Shown here piece by piece: positions 247 to 58,885 of a stretch of DNA of 63,738 bases. The translations under genes and the position numbers were made by a program. The stretch comes from Caldilineales bacterium. Its GTDB lineage: Bacteria; Chloroflexota; Anaerolineae; JAAEKA01. The stretch is taken from assembly GCA_025055015.1 (NCBI GenBank), contig JANWYQ010000088.1, positions 1 to 63,738 of the forward strand. Direction: 5' to 3'. Position 1 is the stretch's first letter. Each line of letters starts with the position of its first letter. The notes under the pieces are model-generated. The model searched no databases. It saw nothing but the letters and a program-made list of their open reading frames with translations, and had not been told where the DNA came from.

Positions 247-3200
247 ATGCACCGAACCCACCTCCTCTGGCTGACTGCGACGCTGTTGATCTGCTGCTTC
301 CTGGCAGCTTCGTTTCCGGAACGTCCGACCTGGGCATTGAGCCCCGCCACATCCGCGTCCTCGCCTCCCTCTCTCCCCGCAGGAGCGGGGGAGCCGGGGA
401 TGAGGTCTTATCTCCCTCTCCTCGCAGCAGAGGGAAGCACGGGGGTGACGTCCCTCCAGATCGCCAACGTGACGGAGAACGCCGACCCCGTCGGCCTCTA
501 CGAGAAGTTCGAGCTGACCTTCGACGTGCTGGGCAGCGTGGCCACCCTGCCCGACTTCCCCTACGACCCCGCGCCGCCCCCCGGCGTGCCCGCGGGCGTC
601 GGCATCACCGTGGAGGCCCTCTTTACCCCCGACAACTGGGCCACCACCCTGGTGCAGCCCGCGTTCCGCTACCAGGCCTACCAGTCGCAGTGCGTGGGCA
701 GCGACGATCCCGCCACCTGCCCGGACGGCCGCAACTGGCTCTACCCGCAGGGGAACCCGGTCTGGAAGGTGCGCTTCGCGCCGCAGCAGGTCGGGGCCTG
801 GCGCTACCGCCTGCGGGCCACTGACGCCTCCGGCACCGTGGAGAGCGCCGAGGGCAGCTTCACCGCTGTGCCATCCACCGATCCTCTCAACCACGGCTTC
901 GTGCGGATCAGCCGCACCGACCCCGGCTACTTCGAGTACTCCGACGGCACCCCCTTCATCGGCGTGGGCCACGGCACCGACTTCGGCAGCGACCGCTTCA
1001 CCTTCTTCGTGGACGAGGAGATGGCCCGCTTCGCCGCCAACCGGGTCAACTTCCTGCGCACCTGGATGAGCGGCAGCAGCATCTACATGGCGCCCTGGAA
1101 CCCCTGGTACTCCCACCACCTGCCCGGCGAGGGGGGCTACTTCAACGCGGCGAGCCTGACCTACGCCGAGGCCTACGCCGACCACGTCTTCTCCCTGCGG
1201 CTGTGGGACTACCCCGACCCCGGCGTGGAGGGCCGGCGCAACCCCTGCATGTTCCAGGGCTTCGTCAACGACATCGCGGTCAAGCCCAACACCACCTACC
1301 AGCTCCGCGTCCGCGTGCGCACCGTGGGCGTGACCGGCCCGCGCGACGGCCGCTATCCCTACGGCTTCACCGTGCGCACCGCCGGCTGGCTGGGCGATAC
1401 CTGCGCCGACCCTGCGCAGACTGCCGAATGGTCCACCCGACTGGTGGGCCATCGCGCCGGCACCACGGCCTGGGGCGAGATGACCGGGGCCTTCACCACC
1501 GGCCCCGACCAACGCTTCCTGGACAACCTCTACCTGATCCTGGAGAACACCACCGGCGGAAACGCCTACGTGGACGAGGTATCGCTGCGGGAGGCGGTCG
1601 GCGGCCAGCCCAGCGGCCCGGAGCTCCTGCGCAAGAACCGCTTCGCCTACCAGCGCTACTTCGACCCCCTGCCGGCCTGGCAGTGGGATTACATCTTCGA
1701 GCGCGCGGCGGCCAGCGGCGTGACCATCCGCCCCGTGGTGCTGGAGAAGAACGACTGGATCGCCAACCACCTGGACGCCAACGGCAACCCGGTCGGCGCG
1801 TACTACGATCTCGACAACAACCGCTTCTACGCCGCGCCGAACACGGCGGTGCGGCGCTACCACGAGTACTTCTGGCGCTACCTGATCGCGCGATGGGGCT
1901 ACTCGCGGGCGGTGCACTCGTGGGAGCTGATCAACGAGGGGGACCCGTACAACGGCAACCACTACGCCATGGCCGACGCGTTCGGCCGCTTCATGCGCGC
2001 CCACGACCCCCACGGCCACCCGGTCACCACCTCCAACTGGCACAGCTTCCCCCAGGTGGAGTTCTGGGCCAACCCGGCCTACAGCGGCGTGGACTACGCC
2101 GACATCCACGAGTACGCCTGCTGCGGCAACCGCTATGCGGGCTGGGCGAGGGACATCGGCGATCCGCTGGCGCTGGAGACGCGGCCGGCCTATGTGGTCG
2201 GCGGCCGGGGCGCGTCAGTGCGCATCCCCGGTGCGATCCAGTTCAACAACGCGGGCGGCACCCCTCGCTCCCTGGCCATCCGCGGCCGCGGGGAGTGGGT
2301 GATCCGCTACCGGATGAAGGCGGAGGGCTTCACGGGGACGTGCAGCTTCGGCCTCCCCAACTCCTTGGCCGGCCCGCGGCTGCTGTGGATCCTGGACGAC
2401 AGCCAGAGCAGCGTGGTGCCGCCGCCGGCCGAGGAGGGCAAGTCGTGGCTGTGCACCGCGCCCGCCGGCACCTACGACTGGCGCACCTTCGACAGCCGGT
2501 ACACCCACGACGGCCTCCTCGCGCCCGCGTCGGAGCGCATCATCCTGAACGACGACGGCATCCACAGCCTGTCCATCTGGTTCCAGAACGGCTTCGGCAC
2601 CGGCGGCAACGCCTGGATTGACGAGGTGGAGCTGATCGGCCCCGCCGGTCAGCGGGTCTACGTCAACGGCGAGTTCGACCCCACCGTGCTGTGGGAAGAC
2701 GCCGCGCACCTGACCGCGTCCCTCAGCCGGCAGATCGGCGGCCGCGCGGCCTCCGGGCCGGGCAAGCCGGTGACGCGCGGGGAGGTGGCCCTGGGCGACG
2801 CCGACGACTACCGGGGGGACGAGAACCACGACCAGAGCCTGGACACGGCGGGCGTGTGGCTGCACACCTTCGTGTGGGGCCAGATCAACCCCGGCGGCCT
2901 GTACGAGCTCTATTGGGATCCCATCAACATCCGGCGCTACAACCTCTACGGCCACTTCCGCGCCTTCCGCAACTTCATGGACGGCATCCCGCTGAACAAC
3001 GGCCGGTACGCCGACCTGCGGGCCGCGGCCTCCCATCCCGACCTGATCGTGCTGGGCCAGGCGGACCGCACGGCCGGCCGCGGGCACCTGTACGTGCGCC
3101 ATCGGCTGTACACGTGGCGCAACGCGGTGGACGGCATGGCCATCCCCCCGCTGGCCGGCTCGGTGAGCATACCCGACCTGGCGCCGGGGGTCTACCGGGT

Positions 3201-3666
3201 GGAGTGGTGGAACCCGTGGACAGGCGCGGCGACGGGTGTGCAGGACGTCGCGGTGACCGGCAGCGAGCTGACCCTGGCGCTGCCGACGCCCCTCTCCACC
3301 TCCGTTGCGGCCAAGTTCGCCCCCCTGGCCGTGGCCGACCTGCGGATCGCGCGCGTTCCGACGGGCGTCCAGCTGCGCTGGCGCGACTTGGGCGGCGGGG
3401 TGCAGCGCTACCAGGTGTGGCGCAGCGCGCAGCCCTACTTCCGGCCCGGCGACCCCGGCTCAAGTCGTATCGCAGACAACGTGCCCCCTGTGCCCGGCGG
3501 CGAGGTGGTCTTCACCGACGACAACAGCCGCGCGGGGAACACGGCGGTCAACGACGTCTACCTGGTGGTGGCGGTGGTGGCCGGCCAGCCCTCCGCGCCC
3601 TCGAACCGTGTGGGGGAGTTCGACTTCGGGCTGACGGCGGGGAGTTCTACCAACCGACGGTTCTAA
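247..3666 (+). CDS. Secreted multidomain glycoside hydrolase-like protein (DUF5060-like N-domain, clan-A/GH5-like barrel with CBM-like inserts, RVGEFDF C-terminal domain)
   Basis: 1139 aa; signal peptide; YEKFELTF...WKVRFAP..G.WRY (DUF5060-like); WELINE putative acid/base motif; YRVEWWNPWTG module; strong GC3 codon bias. Confidence 0.75.
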   Translation: MHRTHLLWLTATLLICCFLAASFPERPTWALSPATSASSPPSLPAGAGEPGMRSYLPLLAAEGSTGVTSLQIANVTENADPVGLYEKFELTFDVLGSVATLPDFPYDPAPPPGVPAGVGITVEALFTPDNWATTLVQPAFRYQAYQSQCVGSDDPATCPDGRNWLYPQGNPVWKVRFAPQQVGAWRYRLRATDASGTVESAEGSFTAVPSTDPLNHGFVRISRTDPGYFEYSDGTPFIGVGHGTDFGSDRFTFFVDEEMARFAANRVNFLRTWMSGSSIYMAPWNPWYSHHLPGEGGYFNAASLTYAEAYADHVFSLRLWDYPDPGVEGRRNPCMFQGFVNDIAVKPNTTYQLRVRVRTVGVTGPRDGRYPYGFTVRTAGWLGDTCADPAQTAEWSTRLVGHRAGTTAWGEMTGAFTTGPDQRFLDNLYLILENTTGGNAYVDEVSLREAVGGQPSGPELLRKNRFAYQRYFDPLPAWQWDYIFERAAASGVTIRPVVLEKNDWIANHLDANGNPVGAYYDLDNNRFYAAPNTAVRRYHEYFWRYLIARWGYSRAVHSWELINEGDPYNGNHYAMADAFGRFMRAHDPHGHPVTTSNWHSFPQVEFWANPAYSGVDYADIHEYACCGNRYAGWARDIGDPLALETRPAYVVGGRGASVRIPGAIQFNNAGGTPRSLAIRGRGEWVIRYRMKAEGFTGTCSFGLPNSLAGPRLLWILDDSQSSVVPPPAEEGKSWLCTAPAGTYDWRTFDSRYTHDGLLAPASERIILNDDGIHSLSIWFQNGFGTGGNAWIDEVELIGPAGQRVYVNGEFDPTVLWEDAAHLTASLSRQIGGRAASGPGKPVTRGEVALGDADDYRGDENHDQSLDTAGVWLHTFVWGQINPGGLYELYWDPINIRRYNLYGHFRAFRNFMDGIPLNNGRYADLRAAASHPDLIVLGQADRTAGRGHLYVRHRLYTWRNAVDGMAIPPLAGSVSIPDLAPGVYRVEWWNPWTGAATGVQDVAVTGSELTLALPTPLSTSVAAKFAPLAVADLRIARVPTGVQLRWRDLGGGVQRYQVWRSAQPYFRPGDPGSSRIADNVPPVPGGEVVFTDDNSRAGNTAVNDVYLVVAVVAGQPSAPSNRVGEFDFGLTAGSSTNRRF

Positions 3667-4573: not shown

Positions 4574-7500
4574 TCACGGCGCTCCCGGCGTCAGGGAGAA
4601 CTCGAACTCGCCGACGCGCGCCGAATACCCAGACTGGTCGAAGCCGTTGAAGGACTGGGCCACGTAGAAGGTCATGCTGCCGGGCTGACCCAGGGCGCCG
4701 GCGTCCACCGTAGTGGTGGCCGAGGTGGTCCGCCACGTCGCGCCGGGCGCGAAGTAGGGATTGGCCGTGTCTCGGTACAATCGGTAGCCCGTGGCGCCGG
4801 GCACGGCCGGCCAGCTCAGCCGCAGGTTGGCGCCGTCGGCCGCGGCGGTTACTGCGGGCGCGGGCAGGGGCCGCAGCAGCGCATACCACAGGGTCTTGTG
4901 GACGCCGGTGTTCACCGTGAACTGGAGCTGGCTGCCGCTGACGGTGGCGCTGAGCTGCGTCTTCCTGGCGCCGGTCTCGTCCAGAGCCCACACCTGCACC
5001 GAGCCGGGGTTGCTCACCGTCAGGGTCACCGTGGCCTGGAAGGGCTCCACCAGCGACGGCGGGCCGCCCCAGTTGGTGAGGGTTGTCCCTTCGGCGTTCC
5101 AGGTCTGGCCGGTGTTCTCGGTGCGGGTGAAGACGCCCAGGATCACCTGGCCGGAGGAGGACAGCGGCAGGCCGTCGCGGCTCTGCGCGGTGACGACCGC
5201 AAACTGGGCCGTGGCCGAGGGCACGGCCAGGCTCAGGTTGCTCAGGCTGACGGTGCGGCCGGCCAGGAAGCCGACGGCGCCCTGGGCCTGGGCGGCGTCG
5301 AAGGTCACCAGGCCGCGGCTGGGGTCGCTGACGTCCCAGCGCAGTTGCCCGCCCGCGCTGACGTAGACCGGGCCGCTGGGGGTGGGCAGGGAGGGGGTGA
5401 CCGGCGCCGCTGCGTTGAAGTCGCCGATGCGCAGCCGGCTGCCGAAGACCGCGGCCGGGCTCACCCCCTTGGCCTCCTGCAGGTACTGGGCCACGCTGCC
5501 GCCCCAGCCGTACAGCGCGCTGTCGTAGCGCTCCGCCTCGGTGAAGCTCAGCGTGCTCGCCGTGGGCGCCGGCGCGGTCTGGTAGTCCAGGAACAGGCGG
5601 GACGCAATGGGCATCAGGCCGGTCATGATGGGGTTGCCGGCCAGGTCGAAGAAGGTGGTGCTGTACTGGGCGTTGTAGTAGAGCTGGTCCTGGTAGTAGG
5701 CGAACTGGAAGACCGCGTCCCAGTCCTGGAGGTTGGCGATCAGGGCCACGAGGATGGGCGCCTCGGCCTGGTAGCGGTTGGGGAAGGCATCGTTGAACTC
5801 GGTGATGGTGAACGGCTTGCCCTGCACCGCGGTCACCGCCTTGTCGAACAGGCCCGTGAAGGGGGAGTTCACCCACGGCTGGTTGGTGATGTACCAGCCG
5901 GTGGGGGACCAGGGCGGGTCGTAGGGCCAGTAGGGGTGGTCCCAGTACAGGTGGTTGTCCACGAAGTCCAGCTGGGACATGGCGTAGATGTCGGCCAGGC
6001 TGTCAATGTAGCTGGCGGTGCCGGTGTTCAGCGGGCCGGGGTGGTTCGTGTGCAGGTAGGTGCGCATGCCGCTGTAGAAGGCGCGCTGCGTCTCATCGTA
6101 GAAGCGCAGGGTGTCGCGTATCCGCTGGGGTGTGTACCGGTAGACCTCGCTGCGGCGGATGCGGGCCACGTTGTTCCCCTCCAGGCTCTCGCCCGCCAGC
6201 AGGCCTTTCCTGTTGTACGGCTTCAGGCTGACGTTGTCAATCCAGATGGTGCGGACGCTTTGCCCCAGGTCGAACACCACGCGGCCGTCGGCGTCGCTGG
6301 CCGTGGCGGTGAAGACGAACTCGAAGGGCTGCCAGCTGGCCGTGGCCTCGACCCAACCCCACAGCCCCAGCCCCTCCCAGGGGTCGTGGTTCTGCATGAC
6401 CCCCACCAAGAAGCCGCCCGGCGCGCTGGTCCTGGCGTCGAAGGTCAGGCGGTAGGTCTGGCCCGCCACGATGTTCAGCCCGCCCTGGCTGACCTGCACG
6501 TGCCAGCTCACCCCCGACACTGCGGTCACGTTGGCGCGCAGGGAGCGGCTGCCGTGGGTGAAGGTGCTGGTGTCGGTGGTGAAGGTGGCCGCGGCCGGCG
6601 CAAAGACGCTGGGGGCCCACGGCGGGATGCCGGTCTCGAAGCTGCCGTTGGCCAGCATCTCCGTCTCCGGCACCGGGCTGGCCGGCGCCCAGGCGGCCTG
6701 GAGCGCGGCCGTGCTGCCGTAGCGGTTCTCCAGCCAGCCCAGCCAGCCGTCCCATGCGTCCACCTCCCGGAAGACGAAGCTGTCGAACCAGAGGGTGCGC
6801 ACGGCCTGGCCGACGCTGAACGCCAGCTGCGCGCCGCCGTAGAGGGTCTCGGTGGCGGTGAAGGTGTAGTCGTACACCTGCCACCCCGTGGTCAGGTTGA
6901 TCGTCTGCGCCCAGCCCAGGGCATCCCACGGGTCGCTGGCGCGCATGACCGTCGCGTAGACCGTGGTCGGCGTGCTGGCGCGCGCGGCGAAGCGCACGCG
7001 ATAGGCCCGGCCGGCCTGCAACGCCAGGTTGGACTGGCCGAACTGGGCATGCCAGTCGGTGCCGGAGACCGATGTCACCTGCACCTGGAGCGCCTGGCTG
7101 CCTTCGTAGGCCGGGGTCGTGGCGATGAAGGTGGCGTTGGCCCCGCCGGTGGTCCAGGTCCACCAGTCGGTCAGGCCGCTCTCGAAGCCGGGGTTGCGCA
7201 GGCGCACGATGCGCGGCCCCGCGCCGGCCAGGTCGGTCCAGCCGTCCAGCTCCAGGCTGGAGAAGGCAGGGAAGCTGCTGCTGTCCCCCGGCCGGTGGTT
7301 GAGCCAGTCGGAGACCCAGGAGAGGAAGAAGCTGTCCTCGTTGCTGGTCTCGGTGGTGAAGATGACGGGGTCGTCCTGGTAGGCCAGGCCGGTGTAGGGG
7401 TTGACGTGGTTCAGGAGCTGCGCCGCGTACTTCTCCTGCAGCCCGCGCATCACCGGGTCGAACAGCGTGGCGCCCTTGTTGAAGTAGACGCTCGAGCTCT

Positions 7501-8134
7501 GGAACTCCGGCGCGTCCACCACGCCGTCGCCCAGGGTGAAGTTGCGGCTGACGTGCAGGTTCAGGTCCACGTAGATGCCGTGGCGCTTGAGCTGGTAGAT
7601 CAGGTAGTCCAGCCGGCCGAGCTGCACCGGGTCCATCACCTGGGTGTTGTTCCAGTACTCCAGCCAGATGCCGCCGGGCCGGCTGAACCAGTCAATGTGG
7701 TGGAAGCGCACCGCGTTGAAGCCCAGCTTGGCCAGCCGGCGGGCCAGCTTCTCGGCCGCCTGCGCGTCGGGGAACTCGCCGGAGCCGCTGGGCGGGTGGT
7801 CGGGGGAGGGCGGGAACGCAGCGCTGAAGGTGAGGTTGGTGCCCCAGAAGCGGGCGCGCTCGCCGGTGTTGCTGAAGCGGAAGTGGCCGTCGGGCCCCAC
7901 CACGACGCGGCCGCGGGCGTTGATCACCGCCGAGAGGTCGTCGCCCGGGGCGTCCCGCAGCAGGTCGGAGGCGTCAATGGGCGTAGCCGTGGCGTCGTCC
8001 CACGGCAGGGTCAGGGGGAACCAGGTGGAGGTGTCGGTTGTGGGCTGCGGAGCTGCGCCCGCAGCCAGGACGGGGTGGGCGAGCAAGAGGACCAGCAGGG
8101 TGAGGAGAGGCAGGGGGGAGCGCAGCGCGTTCAT
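4574..8134 (-). CDS. Secreted clan-A (GH5-like) glycoside hydrolase with two CBM4/9-like domains and RVGEFEF C-terminal domain
   Basis: 1186 aa; signal peptide; GFNAVRFHHID, VDLNLH, ETSNEDS, ITEFN motifs; two NxxFE...WHxQxxQ...YRxxFxAR repeats. Confidence 0.75.
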   Translation of the reverse strand: MNALRSPLPLLTLLVLLLAHPVLAAGAAPQPTTDTSTWFPLTLPWDDATATPIDASDLLRDAPGDDLSAVINARGRVVVGPDGHFRFSNTGERARFWGTNLTFSAAFPPSPDHPPSGSGEFPDAQAAEKLARRLAKLGFNAVRFHHIDWFSRPGGIWLEYWNNTQVMDPVQLGRLDYLIYQLKRHGIYVDLNLHVSRNFTLGDGVVDAPEFQSSSVYFNKGATLFDPVMRGLQEKYAAQLLNHVNPYTGLAYQDDPVIFTTETSNEDSFFLSWVSDWLNHRPGDSSSFPAFSSLELDGWTDLAGAGPRIVRLRNPGFESGLTDWWTWTTGGANATFIATTPAYEGSQALQVQVTSVSGTDWHAQFGQSNLALQAGRAYRVRFAARASTPTTVYATVMRASDPWDALGWAQTINLTTGWQVYDYTFTATETLYGGAQLAFSVGQAVRTLWFDSFVFREVDAWDGWLGWLENRYGSTAALQAAWAPASPVPETEMLANGSFETGIPPWAPSVFAPAAATFTTDTSTFTHGSRSLRANVTAVSGVSWHVQVSQGGLNIVAGQTYRLTFDARTSAPGGFLVGVMQNHDPWEGLGLWGWVEATASWQPFEFVFTATASDADGRVVFDLGQSVRTIWIDNVSLKPYNRKGLLAGESLEGNNVARIRRSEVYRYTPQRIRDTLRFYDETQRAFYSGMRTYLHTNHPGPLNTGTASYIDSLADIYAMSQLDFVDNHLYWDHPYWPYDPPWSPTGWYITNQPWVNSPFTGLFDKAVTAVQGKPFTITEFNDAFPNRYQAEAPILVALIANLQDWDAVFQFAYYQDQLYYNAQYSTTFFDLAGNPIMTGLMPIASRLFLDYQTAPAPTASTLSFTEAERYDSALYGWGGSVAQYLQEAKGVSPAAVFGSRLRIGDFNAAAPVTPSLPTPSGPVYVSAGGQLRWDVSDPSRGLVTFDAAQAQGAVGFLAGRTVSLSNLSLAVPSATAQFAVVTAQSRDGLPLSSSGQVILGVFTRTENTGQTWNAEGTTLTNWGGPPSLVEPFQATVTLTVSNPGSVQVWALDETGARKTQLSATVSGSQLQFTVNTGVHKTLWYALLRPLPAPAVTAAADGANLRLSWPAVPGATGYRLYRDTANPYFAPGATWRTTSATTTVDAGALGQPGSMTFYVAQSFNGFDQSGYSARVGEFEFSLTPGAP

Positions 8135-8744: not shown

Positions 8745-11700
8745 ATGTCCACCCGCACCGTCTTCCTGCTGTTGGGGATCGCCTTGTTGAGCTTCGCCGC
8801 TGTTGCCTTAGCGGCCTTGGCGCTGGCCAGCACCGCTGCGGCCGCGCCGCCGCCCCAGGGTCCCGTCCAGCCGGAGGGGCCACGGCCGCTGGCCCAGGTG
8901 CAGGTGGTCGCCATGCCGGCCTTGGACAACCAAGCCCTGCTGGCCGCCGAGCTGCAGCGCCGCGGGCCGGGCATCGCCCCCCGCTTCGCCCACGCGGTTC
9001 CCGTGCGCTTGACGCCCGACACGGCCGGCACCTGGGACCGCCTGGCCGACGGCCGGTGGCTGTGGCGGCTGCGGGTGCGCTCGGCCGGCGCGGTCTCCTT
9101 GAACCTGGGCTTCACCCAGTACCGGATGCCGGCGGGCGGCCGGTTGGCCGTGTACACCCTGGACCGCAGCGCAGAGTTCGTCTTCACCGACGCGGACAAC
9201 GAGGCCCACGGCCAGCTTTGGACCCCCCTGCTGCCCGGCGACGAGGTGGTCGTGGAGGCGACGCTGCCGGCAGAGGCGCGGTCCGCGCTGCAGCTGGAGC
9301 TGGCCGCAGTGAACCACGGCTTCACCGACCTCAAGTCCGTGCTACAGTCCGGCTCGTGCAACGTAGACGTGGTGTGCGGCGCGGCCGACGGCTTCCCCCA
9401 GGTGGACCTCTGGCGGGACCAGATGCGCGCGGTGGCGCGGCTGGTCATCGGCGGCAACACGGCGTGCACCGGCTTTCTGGTTAACAACACCGCCAACGAC
9501 GGCAAGCCTTACCTGATGACCGCCGCCCACTGCGGGGTGGGCCCCGCAACGGCGCCGTCGCTGGTCGCCTATTGGAACTTCTACAACTCCTTCTGTCGCC
9601 CTCCCAACACCCCCGGCGCGGGTGGCCGGGGGAACGGCTCCCTGAGCCAGTTCAACACCGGCTCCTTCTGGCGGGCCGGCTACGGCGTCTCCGACTTCAC
9701 CCTGGTGGAGCTGGACGACCCCATCCATCCTGCGCACCAGCCCTTCTGGGCCGGCTGGGACGCGCGCAACCTGGCGCCGGCCTCGGCCGTGACCATCCAC
9801 CACCCCCGGGCCGAGGAGATGCGCATCAGTTTCGAGAACGACCCGTTGACGGTGACCTCCTACTTGGGCAGCACCTCGCCGGGCGACGGCACCCACCTGC
9901 GGGTGGCGGACTGGGACCTGGGCACCACCGAGCCCGGCTCCTCCGGTTCTCCCCTCTTTTCGCCGGAGGGGCGGGTGGTCGGCCAGCTGCACGGCGGCTT
10001 TGCGGCCTGCGGCAACGACGCAGCCGACTGGTACGGCCGCTTTGCCGCGTCGTGGACCGGCGGCGGCACGCCCACCTCGCGGCTGCGCGACTGGCTGGAC
10101 CCCCTGGGCCTGGGCGTTCAGGTGTGGAACGGCTTCGGCGGCCGGCCTGACTTTACGTTGCGCGTGACGCCTCGGGAGCAAGGGGCCTGCCTGCCGGCCA
10201 GCGCGGCCTACTCCGTCACCGTGCAGGCCATCGGCGGCTTCACCGAGACGGTGACCCTCAGCGCGGTCAACCTGCCGGCCGGGGTGTCGCCGGCCTTCTC
10301 CCTCAACCCCGTGCCGCCCGACCAGACCAGCCGGCTGACCTTGGGCACGGCCGGCGCAGCCCCCGGCCGCTACACGTTCGAGCTGGTCGGCGCGGCGGCC
10401 AGCTTGGTCCACACGGCTACCGTGGGCCTGAACCTGGCTGCCTCTACCTTTGGCCCTCCCACCCTGATAAGCCCGGCCGACGGCGCGACAGGCCTCGACC
10501 CGATGCCGACCTTCCAGTGGCAAGCCGTGCCCGGCGCCACGGGGTACGAGCTGCAGATCGCAACAGATGCCGGCTTCGCCGACATCGTGTACGCCGCCAC
10601 CGTGCCGGCGGCCCAGACCAGCGCGCAGATTGGCGAGCCCTTAGCCCGCGGGACCACCCACTTCTGGCGCATGGCCGTGCACAACCCCTGCGGCAGGGGC
10701 CCGTTCTCGCCCGCACGGCGCTTCACCACCCAGTATCCGCCCGGCCAGTGTCCCGTCGGCGCCCAGCTGGTGACCCTCTTCGCCGACGACTTCGAGAGCG
10801 GCGCAGCGGGGTGGACCTCAGAAGGATCGGGCAACACCTGGGCCCTGTGGAGCCAGCGGGTGCGCAGCGGCGCCTTCGCCTACCACGCTGACACGCCCTC
10901 CACGGTGACCGACCAGCGGCTGGCGTCCCCGGCCATCCCGCTGCCGGCCACCGAGCTCCCTATCTACCTCAGCTTCTGGAACTACCAGCACATGGAGTCG
11001 CGCGGCTCCGGCGGCTGTTTCGACGGCGGTCTGCTGGAGGTGTCCACCAACGGCGGCGCTACCTGGCAACAAGTGGAGGCGGGCCTGCTCACCGACCCCT
11101 ACGACGGCCCCATTTCGTCAGGCTTTAACAATCCTCTGGCCGGCCGACCGGCCTGGTGCGGCGATCCCCAAGACTGGCTGGAGAGCATCGTGGACCTGGC
11201 GCCCTACGCCGGTCGGACCATCCGCCTGCGCTTCCGGGTGGGCACCGACAGCTCCGTCCGCCGCGAGGGGTGGACCATTGATGACGTGGTGGTGCAAGCG
11301 TGCCAGGTCGGGGGACCGCGCATCGTGGTGGACCCATCGGCCCTAGCCAGTAGCCAGTCGCCCGGCTCGGCCGTCCAGCAGGTGCTTCACATCAGGAACG
11401 AGGGCCAAACGCCCCTCACGTGGCGGATCGCTGAGGAGCCAGCCGCAGCCCACCGCGCGGCGGTGGCGCTGGCGGTCCCGGCCGGCAGCCCAGAGCGCCT
11501 GAGCCCCGCCGCGGCGCCCCGCAGCCGGTCGGCGCCGCTGATCCCGGCCGAGGACGTGATCAACGACGGCAGCTTCGAGGCGGGCACCCCCAACCCCTTC
11601 TGGGGAGAGAGCTCGGTGGCCTTCGGCTCTCCCTTGTGCAGTCGGACCACCTGCAACCCCAACGTCGGCTCTGGCCCCCGCACCGGCGCGTGGTGGGCGT

Positions 11701-12302
11701 GGTTCGGCGGCGTGGCCCGCGTGCGCGAGACCGCGTCGCTGACCCAGACGGTGGTGCTGCACCCTGGCGCGCCGGCCGAGCTCAGCTTCTGGCTGGAGAT
11801 GCCCACTGCCCAGGCGCCTGCCACCCTCACCGTCTCGTTGGACAACACGGTGCTGTTCCAGGCTACCGCTGCCGACGCTTCCCGCTACGCCACCTACACC
11901 AGGGTGCGGGCCGACGTCGGCGCCTTCGCCGACGGCCGGCCCCATGCGCTGCGCTTCCACGCCGTGACGGCCAGCAACGGCGCCGCAGTGACCAACATCT
12001 TCGTGGACGACGTGGCGCTGAACGACAACCTGGTGCCGCCCTGCAGTCGGCTGGAGGATGTGCCGTGGCTAAGCGTGTTCCCCACCCAGGGCACGTTGGA
12101 GCCCTTCGGCGCGGGAAGCAAGGCTGCCGTCGCCGCCACAGTGACGTTCGACGCTTCCGGGCTGAACCTGGGCCTCTACCGAGCCCACCTGTGCGTGACC
12201 AGCAACGACCGGGACAACCCGCTGGTGGTGGTGCCGGTGCGCATGGAGGTGTTCCGGCATCCCGTCCGCACCTACCTCCCCTTGTTGCTCCGAGGGCCCT
12301 GA
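8745..12302 (+). CDS. Secreted trypsin-like (S1, lysyl endopeptidase-like) serine protease with Ig/FN3 and jelly-roll accessory domains
   Basis: TAAHC, SDFTLVEL and GSSGSPLF catalytic triad motifs; propeptide; C-terminal RTYLPLLLR. Confidence 0.85.
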   Translation: MSTRTVFLLLGIALLSFAAVALAALALASTAAAAPPPQGPVQPEGPRPLAQVQVVAMPALDNQALLAAELQRRGPGIAPRFAHAVPVRLTPDTAGTWDRLADGRWLWRLRVRSAGAVSLNLGFTQYRMPAGGRLAVYTLDRSAEFVFTDADNEAHGQLWTPLLPGDEVVVEATLPAEARSALQLELAAVNHGFTDLKSVLQSGSCNVDVVCGAADGFPQVDLWRDQMRAVARLVIGGNTACTGFLVNNTANDGKPYLMTAAHCGVGPATAPSLVAYWNFYNSFCRPPNTPGAGGRGNGSLSQFNTGSFWRAGYGVSDFTLVELDDPIHPAHQPFWAGWDARNLAPASAVTIHHPRAEEMRISFENDPLTVTSYLGSTSPGDGTHLRVADWDLGTTEPGSSGSPLFSPEGRVVGQLHGGFAACGNDAADWYGRFAASWTGGGTPTSRLRDWLDPLGLGVQVWNGFGGRPDFTLRVTPREQGACLPASAAYSVTVQAIGGFTETVTLSAVNLPAGVSPAFSLNPVPPDQTSRLTLGTAGAAPGRYTFELVGAAASLVHTATVGLNLAASTFGPPTLISPADGATGLDPMPTFQWQAVPGATGYELQIATDAGFADIVYAATVPAAQTSAQIGEPLARGTTHFWRMAVHNPCGRGPFSPARRFTTQYPPGQCPVGAQLVTLFADDFESGAAGWTSEGSGNTWALWSQRVRSGAFAYHADTPSTVTDQRLASPAIPLPATELPIYLSFWNYQHMESRGSGGCFDGGLLEVSTNGGATWQQVEAGLLTDPYDGPISSGFNNPLAGRPAWCGDPQDWLESIVDLAPYAGRTIRLRFRVGTDSSVRREGWTIDDVVVQACQVGGPRIVVDPSALASSQSPGSAVQQVLHIRNEGQTPLTWRIAEEPAAAHRAAVALAVPAGSPERLSPAAAPRSRSAPLIPAEDVINDGSFEAGTPNPFWGESSVAFGSPLCSRTTCNPNVGSGPRTGAWWAWFGGVARVRETASLTQTVVLHPGAPAELSFWLEMPTAQAPATLTVSLDNTVLFQATAADASRYATYTRVRADVGAFADGRPHALRFHAVTASNGAAVTNIFVDDVALNDNLVPPCSRLEDVPWLSVFPTQGTLEPFGAGSKAAVAATVTFDASGLNLGLYRAHLCVTSNDRDNPLVVVPVRMEVFRHPVRTYLPLLLRGP

Positions 12303-52317: not shown

Positions 52318-54264
52318 ATGAACCCCTCCCTCCCCCTCCTGCTCCTCTCCCTCCTTCTCCTCCTCTCCCCGGCCGCTGCGGCGGAGCAGCCGTCGGTGGC
52401 GCTGGTGGCGGTGGAGGTGCGCTCGCCGGCTGCCGTGGAGCGGCTGGCAGCCACCGGCGTGCCGGTCTACGCCCGATTGACTGCGCCGGCCGGCGAGGTG
52501 ATGCTGGCCGGCGCCGATGTGCGCGCACAAGCGCAGCTGCGGGCGGCCGGGCTCCCTTTCCGCGCGCTGGACGCGGACATGGCCGGCGCGGAGTACTTCG
52601 TGGCCTACCCGGCGCCCGGCCGCAGCGTGCCCTGGGCCGCCTATGGCCGACTGCTCTACGCAGACGGCCGCCAGGCGGTGCTGCGCTCCACAGCCTCCGC
52701 AGTGCAGCGCCTACAGGCCGAAGGAGTGAAGGTGGTGCCCATCGGCCGGGAGCCCCTTCCCCTGCTGCGGCGCACAGCGGCCGGCGCGGCTGGGGCCTTT
52801 GCCGACCTCTCCCAGCCCGACCCCTTGGTGCAGGCCATGGTCGCCCAGGTCAGCCAGGCCACGGTCTACCAGTACACCGGCGACCTCAGCGGCGAGTGGC
52901 CGGTGGTCGTGGAGGGCGCGCCGTACACCATCACCACCCGCAACACCCTCAGCGGCGAGCCCGTGCGCAAGGCCACCCGCTACGTGGGTGAACACCTGGC
53001 GGCGCTAGGGCTGTCGGTGGAGTACCACACCTACCGCACCGCCTGGCCGCCCAACGTCATCGGGGAGCTGCGGGGCGTCGCCTCGCCGGGCACCATCTAC
53101 ATCGTCGGCGGCCACCTGGACAACATGCCGCCCAGCGGCCGCGCGCCCGGCGCGGACGACAACGCTAGCGGCGCCGTGGGCACGCTGATCGCGGCCGACA
53201 TCCTCAGCCAGTACCAGTGGGACTGCACCCTGCGCTTCGTTTTTTGGACAGGCGAGGAGCAAGGGCTGATCGGCAGCGACGCCTACGCGCGCCGCGCGTC
53301 CCAGCGCAACGAGAACATCTTGGGCGTGATCAACCTGGACATGATCGGCTGGAACACGCCGGGCAGCCCGCCCGACATTGACCTACACGCCAACGCCAAC
53401 CTGCCCGCCACCCTGGACCTGGCCGACCTCTTCGCCGACGTGATCGCCGCCTATGGCCTCGACCTGATCCCTCAGATCGTGCCCGACGGCACCGGAGCCA
53501 GCGACCACGCCTCCTTCTGGAGCCGCGGCTACACCGCCATCCTGGGCATCGAGGACTACCGCGGCAGCCCCAACGACTTCAACCCCTACTACCACACCAG
53601 CAACGACCAGCTCTCCCGGCTGGACATGGCCTACTTCACCGACTTCGTGCGGGCAGCCGTGGCCGCCACAGCCCACATGAGCAACTGCCTGCGCACCGGC
53701 CGGCTCCAGGGCCAGGTCACGGCCAGCCACGACGGCAGCCCCATCGCCGCTGCAACCGTAGCCGTCACCCGCACCGTGGGCTACCAGGGGCAGGTTGCCG
53801 CCGACGGAGCCGGCCACTATGCCACGACCGTGCCGGCCGGCAGCTTCGCGGCTCGGGCCTCGGCCTACGGCTACCTGCCGGCGGACGTGGCCGGGCTCAC
53901 GGTGGGCGGCGGCGCCGTGGTCACGCAGAACTTCGTGCTGACGGCGGCGCCGCCTCAGGCGCCGGCGGTGGCCATCGGCGGCAGCGGCGGCGCGATCAAC
54001 CTGGCCTGGGCCCACGTGTCCCCCAACATGGCCTATCAGGTGCACCGCGGCGAGAGCCCCTACTTCACGGCGGAAGGCAGCACACAGCGGGCCGGCTTCA
54101 ACCTGCCCTTCCCTAACCCGGTGACCTACTCCGACCCCGCAAGCGGCCTGGGCAATCCCCTGGTCAACCACTTCTACGTGGTGCTAGGGGTCAACGCGGC
54201 CGGGGCGACGGTGGCCAGTCAGCGGGTGGGGGAGTTCGACTTCGCGTTGGCGCCCGGCGGCTAG
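52318..54264 (+). CDS. Secreted M28 aminopeptidase with carboxypeptidase-regulatory-like domain and RVGEFDF C-terminal domain
   Basis: GGHLD, GADDNASG, GEEQGL, NLDMIG, SDHASF, YHT zinc-ligand motifs. Confidence 0.9.
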   Translation: MNPSLPLLLLSLLLLLSPAAAAEQPSVALVAVEVRSPAAVERLAATGVPVYARLTAPAGEVMLAGADVRAQAQLRAAGLPFRALDADMAGAEYFVAYPAPGRSVPWAAYGRLLYADGRQAVLRSTASAVQRLQAEGVKVVPIGREPLPLLRRTAAGAAGAFADLSQPDPLVQAMVAQVSQATVYQYTGDLSGEWPVVVEGAPYTITTRNTLSGEPVRKATRYVGEHLAALGLSVEYHTYRTAWPPNVIGELRGVASPGTIYIVGGHLDNMPPSGRAPGADDNASGAVGTLIAADILSQYQWDCTLRFVFWTGEEQGLIGSDAYARRASQRNENILGVINLDMIGWNTPGSPPDIDLHANANLPATLDLADLFADVIAAYGLDLIPQIVPDGTGASDHASFWSRGYTAILGIEDYRGSPNDFNPYYHTSNDQLSRLDMAYFTDFVRAAVAATAHMSNCLRTGRLQGQVTASHDGSPIAAATVAVTRTVGYQGQVAADGAGHYATTVPAGSFAARASAYGYLPADVAGLTVGGGAVVTQNFVLTAAPPQAPAVAIGGSGGAINLAWAHVSPNMAYQVHRGESPYFTAEGSTQRAGFNLPFPNPVTYSDPASGLGNPLVNHFYVVLGVNAAGATVASQRVGEFDFALAPGG

Positions 54265-54950: not shown

Positions 54951-57401
54951 TTACGGCCGCCGACGCCGGGCCACGCCCAGCAGCGCAACCGCGGCCAGGG
55001 CCAACGCCGACCAGCCTGCTGCCGCCAAGGCCTGTCGGCCCTGCTCGGCCCCAAACGAACCCACGCGCAGCGCTGTCGGCTCGCCCAGGATGATGGCAAC
55101 CGGGGAGACCTGCCACGGGCCGGTGGCCTGGCCCAGCCGCGCGCGCACCCGCAGCCGTATCACTGCGCCTCCCGTCTCCGGTGTCGGCCACACCACGGCG
55201 GTCGTCTGGCCGCCGGCCGGCAGGCCGATGGGCCGCCACTGGGCCAAGCGGACGCCGCTCAGCCGCACCTCGTCCAGCCAGGCGCTGTCTTGGCCTGCGC
55301 TCACGGTGCTGTCCTTGCGGTAGCGCCAGGTGATCACGTGGGGGCCCGGCGTCAGGTTCACCTCGAAAGTGGTCCACGGCGTCTCGCCGCTGGCCCGCAA
55401 CACCGTTTGGCCATCCACCAGCGCCTCGAAGAAGTCCCGCCCCGGCTCGGAGCTGACGCGGTAGCGGAAGCTGAGCCGGCCTCCCGCCGGCGCGTCCACC
55501 TCCAGCGCCAGGCTGCTGCTCTGGCCATGGCCAACTGCGCCGGCCTGGGCCGCGCCGCCGGCCGTGCGCCAGAGCTGGTTGCCGTAGGAGAGGAAGTCGG
55601 GCGGCAAGCGGCCGGCGGCGAAGCTCTCAGCCCGCTCGCCCACGGCGTCGGCGTCTAGGCTGTACTGCAGCTCGTAGGCGGCAGCCAAGCCGTCGGCCGA
55701 GGTCCAGCGGATGGCTAGGGGCGAGCCCGGCGCCAAGTACAGCGGCTGAGCCGGCTCGAGAAAGGCCGGCGCGGGCAGGGGCCACAGCCCGCGCGCGGCC
55801 AGCGCCTTGACGATGGCCTCCCGGTGGGCGCCGTCGAACAGGTTCTGGTCCGCGTCCAACAGCGCACGGCCGGCCGCCTCCAGGGTAGCGCCGCACGGCA
55901 TGTAGAAGTTCGCCTCTAGGGCCAGGGTGTCGCCCACCGTCGGGCCGGCCGCTTGACGCACGTCCCACAGCACGCGGCTCCAAAGCTGGCCGTCGGCGTG
56001 GGGGTCCCCGCTGAAGTGCACGGGGTACTGCAGGTCCCGGTCCACCCGGCGCAGGCAATAGGGAGGGGTTTGGGAGTAGCCGTAGCTGTCCCACTCGCCG
56101 ATGCAGGCGGGGTCGCTGCCCACGTCGGCGAAGCGGCTGGCGGCCAGGTAGTCCGCAAATCCCTCGCCGATGGCCGCCATCTCGCCGCCGCCCCAGCAGA
56201 CTACCTGGTCGTGGTGCAGCGCGTGGGCGTACTCGTGGACGATGATGTCGGCGTCCTGAGCGTCCGGCACCCCGCCGTCGCCGAAGTGCAGGGCATCGTC
56301 GCTGATGCTGTAGAAGGACTGGTCGTGCGCGAACCAGTGGGGGCTGGCGTGGGTCACTCGGTCGCGGATGCCGTTGGGCGGGGTGTTGCGGTTGCTGTAG
56401 CCCAGGGACTGCAGGTAGCGCTGGGTGGCGTCCAGGTGGTAGTAGACCATCACCTCCTCGAAGCGCGGGTCCCCGGGCTGGTACAGGAACTTGCCGTCGG
56501 GCGCGAAGGCAGTGGCCGGCAAGTAGCCGCGCGGGGCAGTGACGTCTACGTACTCACCCCGCAGCCAGCCGCTGCCGTCCAGGCCCTGGAGGACGACCGC
56601 CTGCAGCGCGGGCGGCTGGGCAACGTCGCTGGGCATGGGCAGGAGCTGTTGCACGGGGTTCGGCATGAACACCTGGGCCCGGTTGAAGATGAGCCGGTTG
56701 TAGCGCTTGATGGCGGCGCCGGTGACCGCATCCACCAGCACCTCCCAGTCCCCCTGGGGCTCGGCGGCCAGGAGCATCACCCGCCAGGCCAGCCGGCCGA
56801 CGTCCTCTCCCTCCGCCAGGACCACCAGCTCCGGCGGCGGCCCCTCTCGGCGCAGCCGAACCAGGCCGACGGCCTCTTTGGCTGCTGCAGCGGCCTGCTC
56901 TGCGCTTACGGCGATGGACGCCGGGTCCACGGCCAGCCGGCTCCGGGCGCTGCTGTGCACCACCTGGACGCGGCCATTTCGGTCAAGGTGGACGGAGACG
57001 TAGGCGTCCAGCACGGGCAGGCCGGCTACCGTCTGCTGAAAGCGCACATGGGCGCTGCTAAGGCCGTGGCGCACGGAGAGCAGGGCCAGCTCTCCAGCGT
57101 CAGCCAGGCCCAGGGCAGGCGCGTACCGCTCCAAAAAGGCGCGGGCGGCGGCCGCCGGGTCGGCCTCGCCGGCCGCCGGAGGATTGCACCCCCGCAAAAC
57201 GGTCGGAACACCGGTGAGGGGGCTGACCACCACCTCGGCGCAGGGCAGGGGCTGCGAGCCCGCGACAGCAGCTTGCGCAGCCACAGGCGCCGGCGCAAAG
57301 GCCGACGTCAGCAGCAGCGCCACCAGCAGGCTGCGCAGCACTGCCACATATCTTGAGAGGCTGACGCCAGGGCGCCGAGGCCCTGCAAACCGTCCTGACA
57401 A
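54951..57401 (-). CDS. Secreted M36/M4-type zinc metalloprotease (FTP + PepSY propeptide) with C-terminal TM anchor
   Basis: HVRFQQ...GLPV (FTP), VLVDAVTG (PepSY), HEYAH...GEGFADY; C-terminal PTALRVGSF, TM helix, RRRR; start uncertain (TTG 57401 or GTG 57347). Confidence 0.82.
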   Translation of the reverse strand: MSGRFAGPRRPGVSLSRYVAVLRSLLVALLLTSAFAPAPVAAQAAVAGSQPLPCAEVVVSPLTGVPTVLRGCNPPAAGEADPAAAARAFLERYAPALGLADAGELALLSVRHGLSSAHVRFQQTVAGLPVLDAYVSVHLDRNGRVQVVHSSARSRLAVDPASIAVSAEQAAAAAKEAVGLVRLRREGPPPELVVLAEGEDVGRLAWRVMLLAAEPQGDWEVLVDAVTGAAIKRYNRLIFNRAQVFMPNPVQQLLPMPSDVAQPPALQAVVLQGLDGSGWLRGEYVDVTAPRGYLPATAFAPDGKFLYQPGDPRFEEVMVYYHLDATQRYLQSLGYSNRNTPPNGIRDRVTHASPHWFAHDQSFYSISDDALHFGDGGVPDAQDADIIVHEYAHALHHDQVVCWGGGEMAAIGEGFADYLAASRFADVGSDPACIGEWDSYGYSQTPPYCLRRVDRDLQYPVHFSGDPHADGQLWSRVLWDVRQAAGPTVGDTLALEANFYMPCGATLEAAGRALLDADQNLFDGAHREAIVKALAARGLWPLPAPAFLEPAQPLYLAPGSPLAIRWTSADGLAAAYELQYSLDADAVGERAESFAAGRLPPDFLSYGNQLWRTAGGAAQAGAVGHGQSSSLALEVDAPAGGRLSFRYRVSSEPGRDFFEALVDGQTVLRASGETPWTTFEVNLTPGPHVITWRYRKDSTVSAGQDSAWLDEVRLSGVRLAQWRPIGLPAGGQTTAVVWPTPETGGAVIRLRVRARLGQATGPWQVSPVAIILGEPTALRVGSFGAEQGRQALAAAGWSALALAAVALLGVARRRRP

Positions 57402-57415
57402 CCCGGTCGCTCCGC

Positions 57416-58885
57416 TCAGTAGGCTCGGGCGAAGATGGCCACGCGGGAGGTGCGCTGGCCGGTGTAGAAGCACACCCCCTCGCCCTCGGGGGTGTCCAGC
57501 GGATAGCAGCGGATGGTGGCCTTGGTCTCGGCCTTGATCAGGTCCTCGTCCTCGCTGCTGCCGGCCCAGTGCACCCGCAGGAAGCCGCCCTTGCTCTCCA
57601 GCACCTCTTTGAACTCGTCGTAGGAGCGGATGCCGGTGTGGGTGTTGGCGTCGCGGAAGGCGGTGGCCTGGGCTAGCAGGTTGGCCTGGATCTCCCGCAG
57701 CAGGTCCTGCACGGCAGCGGCCGCGCCGTCGGCCGGCACGCCGAACAGCTTGGCCTTGGGGCCACCGGCGGCCTCGATCTCGCGGGAGCTGTCGCGGCGG
57801 GCCAGCACGACTGCGTGGTTGGCGACGTCCTTGGGCCCGATCTCGACCCGCACCGGCACCCCGCGCATCTCCCAGTCGTTGAACTTGAAGCCGGGGGTCA
57901 GCTCCTCTCGGTCGTCAAGGCGCACCCGGATGCCGGCAGCCTTGAGCTGGGCCTCGACGTTGCGGGCGAAGGCCATCACCGCAGCCCGCTCCTCGTCCTT
58001 CTTGTAGATGGGCACGATCACGGCCTGGATGGGGGCCATCACCGGCGGCAGGCGCAGGCCCTGGTCGTCGCCGTGGGTCATGATGATGGCGCCGATGATG
58101 CGGGTGCTGAGGCCCCAGCTGGTGGTCCAGGCGTACTGCATCTCGTTGTTTTGGTCCAGGAACTTGATGTCGAAGGCCTTGGCGAAGTTTTGGCCTAAGA
58201 AGTGGCTGGTGCCGCTCTGCAGGGCCCAGCCGTTGCCCATCATGGCCTCGATGGTGTAGCTCTCCACTGCGCCGGCGAACTTCTCCCGCTCGCTCTTCTT
58301 GCCCTTGATCACGGGGATGGCGGCGTCGTTGATGGCGAAGTCGGCGTAGACCTCCAGCATCTGGATGGTCTCGGCCAGGGCCTCCTCGGCGGTGGCGTGG
58401 GCGGTGTGGCCCTCCTGCCAGAGGAACTCCAGGGTGCGCAGGAAGGGGCGGGTGCGCATCTCCCAGCGCACCACGTTGGCCCACTGGTTGATCAGGATGG
58501 GCAGGTCGCGGTAGCTCTGCACCCACTGGGAGTACATGTAGCCGATGATGGTCTCGGAGGTGGGGCGAACCACCAGGGGCTCGGCCAGCTCCTCGCCGCC
58601 GCCGATGGTGACTACGGCCAGCTCGGGCGAGAAGCCCTCGACGTGCTCCTTCTCGCGCTCCAGGAAGCTCTTGGGGATGAAGAGGGGGAAGTAGGCGTTG
58701 ACGTGGCCGGTGGCCTTGAAGCGGCGGTCCAGGCCGGCCTGCACCGCCTCCCACAGGCTGTAGCCGTAGGGCTTGATGACCATGCAGCCGCGCACCGGTG
58801 CGTTCTCCGCCAGCTCTGCCTCGCGGATCACGTCCAAATACCACCGGGAATAGTCCTCGCGGCGCGGGGTGATCTTCGATGCCAT
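57416..58885 (-). CDS. proS: Proline--tRNA ligase, archaeal/eukaryote-like type
   Basis: RPTSET, QWANVVRWE, FLRTLEFLWQEGH, C-terminal FARAY; no INS editing domain. Confidence 0.97.
   Translation of the reverse strand: MASKITPRREDYSRWYLDVIREAELAENAPVRGCMVIKPYGYSLWEAVQAGLDRRFKATGHVNAYFPLFIPKSFLEREKEHVEGFSPELAVVTIGGGEELAEPLVVRPTSETIIGYMYSQWVQSYRDLPILINQWANVVRWEMRTRPFLRTLEFLWQEGHTAHATAEEALAETIQMLEVYADFAINDAAIPVIKGKKSEREKFAGAVESYTIEAMMGNGWALQSGTSHFLGQNFAKAFDIKFLDQNNEMQYAWTTSWGLSTRIIGAIIMTHGDDQGLRLPPVMAPIQAVIVPIYKKDEERAAVMAFARNVEAQLKAAGIRVRLDDREELTPGFKFNDWEMRGVPVRVEIGPKDVANHAVVLARRDSSREIEAAGGPKAKLFGVPADGAAAAVQDLLREIQANLLAQATAFRDANTHTGIRSYDEFKEVLESKGGFLRVHWAGSSEDEDLIKAETKATIRCYPLDTPEGEGVCFYTGQRTSRVAIFARAY

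Follow-up and report, generated by a model that had tools for sequence, protein, structure and literature searches.

Three secreted proteins encoded in one stretch of DNA from a Caldilineales bacterium end in the same module. What does this module do? The stretch, referred to here as the window, is contig JANWYQ010000088.1 of assembly GCA_025055015.1 and is 63,738 nucleotides long. It is contig C144 in our numbering of the assembly (G000), which comprises 4.14 Mb in 238 contigs with 68.6% G+C and 92% completeness. The last ~110 residues of the proteins P0001, P0002 and P0003 can be aligned, and we call this module the tag. Our analysis favors, with a probability of about 0.58, the explanation that it is a specialized fibronectin type III (FN3) domain of ~110 residues that acts as a non-covalent docking tag for a membrane-tethered receptor. 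The pair would be analogous, not homologous, to dockerin and cohesin.

Three secreted proteins with a common C-terminal domain

The genes and their tags are located in the window as follows. E is the expect value of a match, and pLDDT is the predicted local distance difference test score of a model.

247 to 3666, forward strand: gene of P0001, a secreted protein of 1139 residues with a signal-like N-terminus, a sub-threshold Pfam match to DUF5060 and a C-terminal tag
3313 to 3666, forward strand: FN3-type tag of P0001; profile match at 3313 to 3645, E 1.1e-33; FN3 fold in an AlphaFold2 model with pLDDT 93
4574 to 8134, reverse strand: gene of P0002, a secreted protein of 1186 residues with two CBM_4_9 domains, a weak GH5 match (E 0.04; both Pfam) and a C-terminal tag
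4574 to 4876, reverse strand: FN3-type tag of P0002; profile match at 4577 to 4876, E 7.3e-29
52318 to 54264, forward strand: gene of P0003, a secreted M28 aminopeptidase of 648 residues with M28 and CarboxypepD_reg domains (Pfam) and a C-terminal tag
53941 to 54264, forward strand: FN3-type tag of P0003; profile match at 53941 to 54261, E 7.5e-35

The P0001 tag has the tail SNRVGEFDFGLTAG, followed by an atypical extension of seven residues, SSTNRRF. The tails of the P0002 and P0003 tags are SARVGEFEFSLTPGAP and SQRVGEFDFALAPGG, respectively, and in both the stop codon comes directly after. Pairwise comparisons of the window tags with BLASTP gave E 6e-14 (38% identity over 93 residues) and 5e-11 (35% over 92 residues), the latter between P0002 and P0003. 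The N-termini of all three proteins are basic and then hydrophobic, as judged by a hydropathy heuristic rather than SignalP. The open reading frames (ORFs), the alignment and the BLASTP matches agree with a preliminary description of this DNA, which had claimed three ORFs with signal-like starts and a common alignable C-terminal module. The same description regarded two of the proteins as large and glycoside hydrolase-like. P0002 has its CBM_4_9 domains and weak GH5 match, and a glycoside hydrolase-like nature is not shown for P0001, where only the sub-threshold DUF5060 match was found.

The tag is a divergent FN3 domain with a family-specific end

The AlphaFold2 model of the tag, calculated from an 18-row alignment, has a pLDDT of 93 and a predicted template modeling score (pTM) of 0.84. 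It is a seven-strand β-sandwich of FN3 topology. The best matches in a Foldseek search of the PDB are FN3 domains (E 4e-4 to 4e-3, template modeling (TM) score 0.5-0.65), including myomesin My4, the N-terminal FN3 domains of the pectate lyases Pel3/PelI, titin FN3 and a C. thermocellum Fn3-like protein. A myomesin chain (5fm5_M) ranks first. By sequence, chitinase A1 (FnIII domain, 1k85, E 1e-4) and the C. thermocellum Fn3-like protein (3mpc) come nearest among solved structures. The FN3 likeness remarked on in the preliminary description is therefore borne out by the fold.

No Pfam or NCBIfam model matched the tag in whole proteins or in isolated domains searched to E 10, and the sole rows returned are at chance level (DUF4992, E 0.007; AosR, E 0.069). 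The Pfam fn3 model (PF00041) matched the tag neither in the 18 tagged proteins of G000 nor in isolated domains at E ≤10. The tag profile itself matched 34,136 proteins of a representative library at E ≤1e-3. The best 150 of these are all giant tandem-FN3 proteins, with up to 44 repeats, and are uninformative on the range of the subfamily. A word-indexed search was likewise dominated by generic FN3 domains.

These matches to tandem FN3 proteins, and the identity of the nearest solved sequences, would fit a rival explanation of the tag. It could be an ordinary bacterial FN3 accessory domain, a spacer, stabilizer or substrate-surface binder comparable to the FN3 modules of chitinases and cellulases, that has no dedicated partner and was spread among secreted enzymes by domain shuffling. 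However, the generic matches break off around profile position 100-103 of 113, and they consequently lack the GEFDFxLxPG end of the tag. In an alignment of 53 copies, the columns outside the FN3 core that are at least 80% conserved lie in P44-Y45, G75 and N98-G110, the last of which is the last strand. The most conserved residues are found in surface loops and the last strand, not in the core, and the conservation peak in the last strand noticed from the three window copies persists in the larger set. The FN3 modules of glycohydrolases (1k85, 3mpc and 5g56 of CtXyl5A) have fold and ancestry in common with the tag and provide its best sequence and structure matches. As a rule they link catalytic with binding modules inside the protein, and they lack the tag signature PYF...GxP...NRVGEFDFxLxPG. 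We read the ~110-residue module as a divergent bacterial FN3 subfamily that has a family-specific signature and is missed by the Pfam fn3 model.

The tag is almost always terminal on diverse secreted proteins

A hidden Markov model (HMM) of the tag was iterated on the six-frame ORFs of the whole genome. It identified 19 copies in G000, with domain E-values of 2e-11 to 6e-37, and the best ORF without a tag scores only 9e-4. In 15 of the 19 copies the stop codon comes directly after the tag, and in 17 it follows within 5 residues. The others are a partial copy in a short ORF on contig C3 (1 residue after), the P0001 tag with its SSTNRRF tail (5 residues after), the tag of an alkaline phosphatase, which has lost the GEFDF strand (13 residues after), and one internal copy on contig C15, located between a LamG domain and a Pro/Thr linker that leads to a β-propeller. 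A hydrophobic signal-like start was found by the same heuristic in all 16 tag ORFs with a complete N-terminus; two more ORFs are cut by contig ends.

The cargo in G000 covers more than 10 unrelated Pfam families. The tagged peptidases belong to S8 (two), M14, M28 and C25 (two). Other tagged enzymes are an alpha-amylase, an alkaline phosphatase, a glucose/sorbosone dehydrogenase and a PETase-like esterase. Non-catalytic or uncertain cargo includes GHL15 with CBM4_9 and LamG, GEVED, PKD, a Vgb-lyase-like propeller and TSP3. The PPC domain (PF04151) was not matched in any of the 18 tagged proteins in the Pfam scan.

The partial copy on C3 (6088-6495, forward strand) is a 136-residue ORF in which only HMM positions 63-117 of a tag, its C-terminal half, are present. 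It lies just upstream of another tagged gene, which starts near 6672. Most likely a frameshift or an assembly error has detached it from an upstream gene whose end it represents.

The pattern S[NQ][RH][VT]GEFDF, which says nothing about the distance to a stop codon, was scanned over one genome per species (185,579 species). It was found in 101 stretches, 96 of which were confirmed with a 6-row query alignment. The best 80 were kept and correspond to 76 loci in 37 assemblies. Nearly all are metagenome-assembled genomes (MAGs) of Chloroflexota, labeled Anaerolineae, Anaerolineales, Caldilineales, 'Chloroflexia', Ardenticatenaceae or Promineifilaceae; other labels are limited to one Halieaceae contig, one Fermentibacteria and one Eisenbacteria. 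The nearest public loci come from Caldilineales and Anaerolineae MAGs. Once three copies duplicated between overlapping loci, one copy cut by the edge of its locus and one truncated HMM match had been excluded, 97 distinct complete copies remained. Eighty-six of them are followed by at most 3 residues, three by 4-40 residues, and eight are internal.

The eight internal copies, together with the lack of a conserved neighboring gene (see below), would fit an ordinary FN3 accessory domain. Against it, the tag subfamily occurs as a single copy per protein and is terminal in 86 of 97 cases, it is also attached to enzymes without a polysaccharide substrate (peptidases and a phosphatase), and, as described in the following sections, it alternates with dockerin on orthologues and co-occurs with a candidate receptor. 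We consider a plain accessory domain distinctly unlikely. In line with the preliminary description, the tag is a conserved and almost always terminal domain on unrelated cargo with signal peptides. Membership in a catalogued family, a mostly internal or tandem arrangement, and occurrence on proteins without signal peptides would each have spoken against this, and none was found.

In six loci from other MAGs, small frames of 146-245 residues are found directly downstream of large tagged genes. They contain little more than a tag with an insertion. These tag-only proteins could be caps, competitors or adaptors.

L020, 10156-10890: small tag-only frame
L023, 10426-11106: small tag-only frame
L030, 7753-8352: small tag-only frame
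L033, 7864-8466: small tag-only frame
L038, 2004-2537: small tag-only frame
L059, 10546-10983: small tag-only frame

The tag alternates with dockerin on orthologous enzymes

The tag profile was run over 30 relatives at E ≤1e-10; 17 others besides G000 belong to its family. G000 has 18 matches, G001 (same genus) 11, G002 (another genus of the family) 13 and G029 one. G005 has one weak match (E 7e-11) that stops short of the tail, and none was found in the remaining 14 of the 17 family genomes. The distribution of dockerin and cohesin in the same family is as follows.

Dockerin_1 matches: 0 in G000, 1 in G001, 0 in G002, 4-15 in each of the other 15 family genomes
Cohesin matches: not found in G000 and G002, 2 in G001, present in 12 of the other 15 family genomes

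The tag is not itself a dockerin. Dockerin_1 (PF00404) has no match on the tag or anywhere in G000, and the tag fold is FN3.

The replacement can be followed on individual enzymes. The M28 orthologue of G001 ends in the tag, as in G000. In the tag-free genera represented by G003, G004 and G006, the M28 orthologues end in a common repeat module where the tag sits. Pfam scores this module as Dockerin_1 in G004 (18.6 bits) and G006 (21.9 bits), slightly short of the gathering threshold of 22.9; the G003 module has no Pfam match and was likened to dockerin by eye only. Similarly, the C25 peptidases of dockerin genomes carry dockerin directly after the catalytic domain and in the same frame, as a comparison of coordinates indicated, and those of G000 carry the tag at that position. 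The relatives (G003-G017, G024 and others) have 4-11 matches each to C25, the gingipain family. In these genomes a non-cellulosomal cohesin-dockerin set is found on peptidases, with 4-15 dockerin and up to 12 cohesin matches.

The pattern extends to the class. Among 401 class genomes, 16 are tag-rich, with at least 7 matches; they belong to families f1, f22, f42 and f49, and all have 0-3 dockerin matches. By hand count, about 88 of the 401 have at least 4 dockerin matches. Within the family, the tag and cohesin-dockerin are nearly mutually exclusive. This alternation is a pattern and not a statistic, because related genomes are not independent. It indicates that the tag occupies the niche of dockerin. 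For six Anaerolineae genomes, one published report states that neither cohesin nor dockerin was identified (PMC4877987).

The resemblance to the type I dockerin-cohesin system (PF00404, PF00963) is one of arrangement. In both cases a small C-terminal module is found on many secreted enzymes, and a non-covalent, cell-tethered receptor is known for dockerin and proposed for the tag. The terminal position and the diversity of cargo are alike, and from one genome to the next the tag takes the position of dockerin on orthologous M28 peptidases and also on C25 peptidases; the receptor proposed below comes from co-occurrence, fusion, adjacency and a complex model only. Dockerin is a duplicated calcium-binding helical motif that binds to a face of the cohesin β-sandwich. 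In contrast, the tag is a full FN3 domain, its candidate receptor is a two-domain α/β protein, and the predicted contact is a β-strand insertion. The two systems have no homology.

A candidate receptor co-occurs with the tag

Internal copies of the tag pointed to a possible partner. In loci L062 and L077 (two proteins in the latter), a signal segment is followed by a cohesin, the tag and two repeats of ~85 residues that end in TWP directly before the stop codon. The cohesin was matched by Pfam in the two proteins scanned (E 6e-8 and 2e-5) and recognized by eye in the second L077 protein. L086 has the same architecture with a propeller in place of the cohesin. We named the repeat protein TWP. 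An HMM of the TWP repeats matched a single ORF of G000, located outside the window.

Contig C149, 825-1526, reverse strand: P0273, the TWP of G000, 234 residues, found with the TWP repeat HMM

The P0273 gene divergently adjoins the gene of a tagged S8 peptidase, and C149 holds three tag genes. P0273 has no Pfam match. In a large protein collection, TWP forms 107 clusters of unnamed or 'hypothetical' proteins, almost all of 210-250 residues and with no precomputed Pfam domain. The 98 members that start with Met begin with M-[KR]-x, followed by an uncharged run with a median of 22 residues (10th-90th percentile 18-22) and an Ala/Pro-rich linker. The uncharged N-terminal runs of the cargo proteins P0002 and P0003 measure 10-11 residues. 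Because of its length, the TWP run fits a membrane helix better than the core of a signal peptide, suggesting that it may serve as an uncleaved anchor.

The two-domain part of TWP was modeled with a pLDDT of 96 and a pTM of 0.90. Foldseek found nothing in the PDB at E ≤0.001 (best TM score 0.24), and a sequence profile search of the PDB found nothing below E 0.9. The best match from VIA-align wide is RCK_C/TrkA_C-like, with a Z-score of 4.3 over 70 residues and a root-mean-square deviation of 3.2, which is within the noise range of the tool. The missing solved relatives do not show that the fold is new. The ESM Atlas contains TWP-like proteins of ~220 residues, of which the few labeled members are from Chloroflexota, Acidobacteriota, Cloacimonadota and Woesearchaeota. 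It also contains structural look-alikes of TWP inside Bacteroidota proteins that have tails of the type IX secretion system (T9SS).

We searched the 401 class genomes with the TWP profile at E ≤1e-6 and the tag profile at E ≤1e-15. TWP was found in 22 genomes, nearly always once, and the tag in 28.

Both TWP and tag: 19 genomes
TWP only: 3 genomes
Tag only: 9 genomes
Neither: 370 genomes

The 19 genomes with both are spread over 8 families. TWP is matched in 12 of the 16 tag-rich genomes, by complete frames of 226-314 residues in 11 and only by fragments at contig ends in one (G236). Genomes with only one or two tags mostly fuse the tag before TWP, as adjoining coordinates indicate in G029, G199, G305 (twice) and G325; L062, L077 and L086 are further fusions. 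Both tag and TWP are also encoded in the Promineifilaceae genome to which locus L084 belongs. In G247 a tag gene ends 31 nucleotides before the TWP open frame, and in G341 a tag gene and TWP are located on one contig, ~2.3 kb apart. No description of the tag or TWP was found in the literature, as far as the abstracts, mostly their openings, tell. The alternation of tag and dockerin is new, as is TWP itself, an uncatalogued and usually single-copy protein of ~230 residues that co-occurs with the tag.

The predicted complex would explain the conservation of the last strand

The complex was modeled from a 15-row TWP alignment and a 53-row tag alignment with the M28 (P0003) copy first, not paired by genome. 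The tag and TWP gave a complex score of 0.93, compared with 0.02 for the best of three controls. A mark of 0.93 is reached by 58 of 80 solved complexes and by 2 of 110 mismatched pairs, which is a rough calibration since our own alignments were used here. Agreement of contacts between the three runs is at least 98%, and the partner has a pLDDT of 90 or higher. TWP has no solved relative that the model could 'remember'.

Tag residues 100-108 (VGEFDFALA) are paired in the model with TWP 83-90 on one side and TWP 4-9 on the other. Tag residues 43-45 (SPY, which includes the first two residues of PYF), 74-75 and 77 (GxP) also make contacts. The full set of tag residues at the interface is 15-18, 23, 43-45, 74-75, 77, 82 and 98-111. 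When TWP is modeled alone, its residues 77-107 are mostly coil. Thirteen of the 21 tag columns that are at least 80% conserved are located in the predicted interface; the other eight are outside it, namely L25, W27 and Y36 of the FN3 core and R40, F46, P48, N80 and S97. Mean tag conservation is 0.68 in the interface and 0.39 elsewhere. The predicted interface would account for the conservation peak in the last tag strand. In addition, the C-terminus of the tag ends beside the N-terminus of TWP in the model, which fits the natural fusions. These results support binding and do not show it.

The predicted contact resembles donor-strand complementation or β-strand augmentation, as in chaperone-usher pili and in the complex of myomesin with obscurin-like-1 (5fm5), where a strand is donated to the sheet of the partner. 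Unlike in those systems, the donor would be the last strand of a complete FN3 domain, and the acceptor would be a tandem α/β domain that is not of the Ig type.

Search for export machinery

The preliminary description compared the tag with sorting signals such as those of the T9SS and PEP-CTERM, named export among its possible roles and recommended a search for a co-distributed translocase or peptidase. In an export or sorting pathway of this kind the tag would be a true sorting signal, cleaved or covalently attached, for example by a PorU-like C25 peptidase. The type A C-terminal domain of the T9SS in Bacteroidota (PF18962/TIGR04183) provides the logic for this proposal. Like the tag, it is a terminal β-sandwich of ~80-110 residues that is found on diverse hydrolases in many copies per genome, with conservation concentrated in its last strands. 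The tag is likewise attached to S8, C25, M14 and M28 peptidases and glycanases. Moreover, two C25 peptidases of G000 are themselves tagged, and PorU carries a C-terminal domain of its own.

However, Por_Secre_tail and TIGR04183 matched neither the tagged proteins nor isolated tags in Pfam and NCBIfam, and PF18962 has nothing in the whole of G000 at E ≤0.01. SprA_N (PF14349) was found neither in G000 nor in any of 14 control genomes, which makes this result uninformative, and other T9SS components were not searched. No signal of the LPXTG, PEP-CTERM or PGF-CTERM type was found on the tagged proteins, which stop 0-5 residues after xLxPG and have no hydrophobic helix or basic end. G000 has one sortase-domain gene, and the tag lacks an LPXTG-type signal.

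A conserved neighbor was sought by all-against-all BLASTP of ORFs of at least 120 residues within 10 kb of the tag genes, in the 76 loci and G000. The best cluster occurs in only 8 of 38 assemblies, and several leading clusters are antisense ORFs of the tag genes themselves. A C25 peptidase was considered as a PorU-like partner and rejected, since all 17 other family genomes have PF01364 matches, irrespective of the tag. No other peptidase or translocase that co-varies with the tag was found. Chloroflexota are generally regarded as single-membrane bacteria, and in such cells no second translocation step would be needed. A sorting signal of this kind is quite improbable, and the predicted partner of the tag is a small binding protein, not a secretion machine or an enzyme. 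We read the tag as a non-covalent tag-receptor display element. The preliminary description had also guessed at surface attachment by β-strand docking, and this is where the best evidence from sequence, distribution and models points.

Other C-terminal tails

A second, very short tail of the form [RK]x[YF]LPL[ILV]x[RQK], followed by 0-3 residues and the stop codon, is found on many large proteins of G000. In the window, a protein of 1185 residues (8745-12302, forward strand) ends in VRTYLPLLLRGP. The tail is present on ~20 other ORFs, for example on contigs C206, C78, C99, C173, C183 and C211. The motif occurs in the last 16 residues of 28 ORFs of at least 150 residues, compared with 7 of 11,315 random internal windows of 16 residues. 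The alkaline phosphatase whose FN3 tag lacks the last strand has this LPL-type tail at its end instead. The tail may serve as a further tag for anchoring or sorting. A secreted protein of 840 residues in the window (54951-57473, reverse strand) has yet another C-terminus, a hydrophobic helix with an Arg-rich tail (..GWSALALAAVALLGVARRRRP).

Discussion

Direct observation covers the domain and its terminal position, the cargo that carries it, its distribution among genomes, the fusions and the adjacency of genes. From these we infer that the tag binds TWP in trans, that TWP is anchored in the membrane and that the tagged enzymes are displayed on the surface. The tagged enzymes would be exported via ordinary N-terminal signal peptides. 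Outside the membrane, the tag would bind to the small receptor TWP (P0273 in G000), which is predicted to consist of an N-terminal membrane helix of ~22 residues, an Ala/Pro-rich stalk and two tandem α/β domains of ~85 residues. The last strand of the tag (VGEFDFxL) would insert between the first strand of TWP and its inter-domain segment (SFVGDVP), and the PYF and GxP loops would pack on top. The outcome would be ~18 surface-held hydrolases, namely M28, M14, S8 and C25 peptidases, amylase, alkaline phosphatase, esterase and CBM proteins. This set would do the job of cohesin-dockerin in sister genera.

Several points weigh against this proposal. Every binding and display step is a model or an inference, and the evidence is all computational. 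The TWP fold may have a more general role. The swap with dockerin inside family f1 may be a single evolutionary event. Since natural fusions exist, the complex model may reproduce mere intramolecular packing. Three genomes (G220, G368, where the match is weak, and G389) have TWP only. Within 10 kb in the 76 loci, TWP adjoins the tag only as a fusion, and separate adjacent genes are found only in G000 and G247. Finally, TWP could not be recognized convincingly, even at E 0.1, in four tag-rich genomes out of 16: G002, G123, G322 and G395, with completeness of 97, 94, 100 and 73%, respectively. A search of these and of G171 at E ≤0.1 found only two weak single-domain matches. In these four genomes TWP is either non-obligatory, diverged or not assembled.

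Larger secreted proteins in two of these genomes end in a double 'GWN-x-I-x-x-P(L)' domain that is weakly similar to the TWP repeats (E 0.05 in G002 and 0.015 in G322). The domain may represent a wider superfamily or an alternative receptor.

L116, 1240-2592, reverse strand: double GWN protein of G002
L115, 100-1302, reverse strand: double GWN protein of G322

The tag could also dock elsewhere, to a wall or sheath polymer, to an S-layer or to another tag by strand exchange, with the link to TWP reflecting only that the two form one unit in fused proteins. The tag-rich genomes without TWP are consistent with this. So are the cohesin-tag-TWP fusions in the dockerin-rich genomes G305 (8 dockerin matches) and G325 (10), where the module could be structural, and the small tag-only proteins (150-250 residues) right after large tagged genes in six loci. 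Such docking would not explain why the 11 complete TWP frames of tag-rich genomes, at 226-314 residues, are too short to include cargo and are single-copy, why the complex model puts the family-specific tag residues in the TWP interface, or why the TWP gene adjoins tag genes in G000 and G247. We regard docking elsewhere as unlikely.

The fusions suggest how docking between the tag and TWP could have originated. The pair probably arose by fission of a fused surface protein. We see even odds for the broader proposal that several Chloroflexota lineages (Anaerolineae sensu lato, including Caldilineales) have an undescribed two-part display system. The system would have originated from fission of a cohesin-FN3-TWP protein, reached 10-20 hydrolases in each genome and taken the place of cohesin-dockerin there.

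Activated sludge, digesters, sediments and soils are rich in filamentous Chloroflexota, which presumably live on polymers through surface-bound hydrolysis. How exoenzymes are retained at the cell in this mostly single-membrane phylum is poorly understood. If the proposal is true, it would account for the C-termini of dozens of 'hypothetical' hydrolases in each genome, and annotation would gain two new families, neither of which is in the Pfam and NCBIfam copies searched. The question would be testable with two small soluble proteins, which could also provide a new orthogonal docking pair for enzyme display and synthetic scaffolds. In addition, the alternation of tag and dockerin from genome to genome is a natural experiment in the replacement of one docking system by another.

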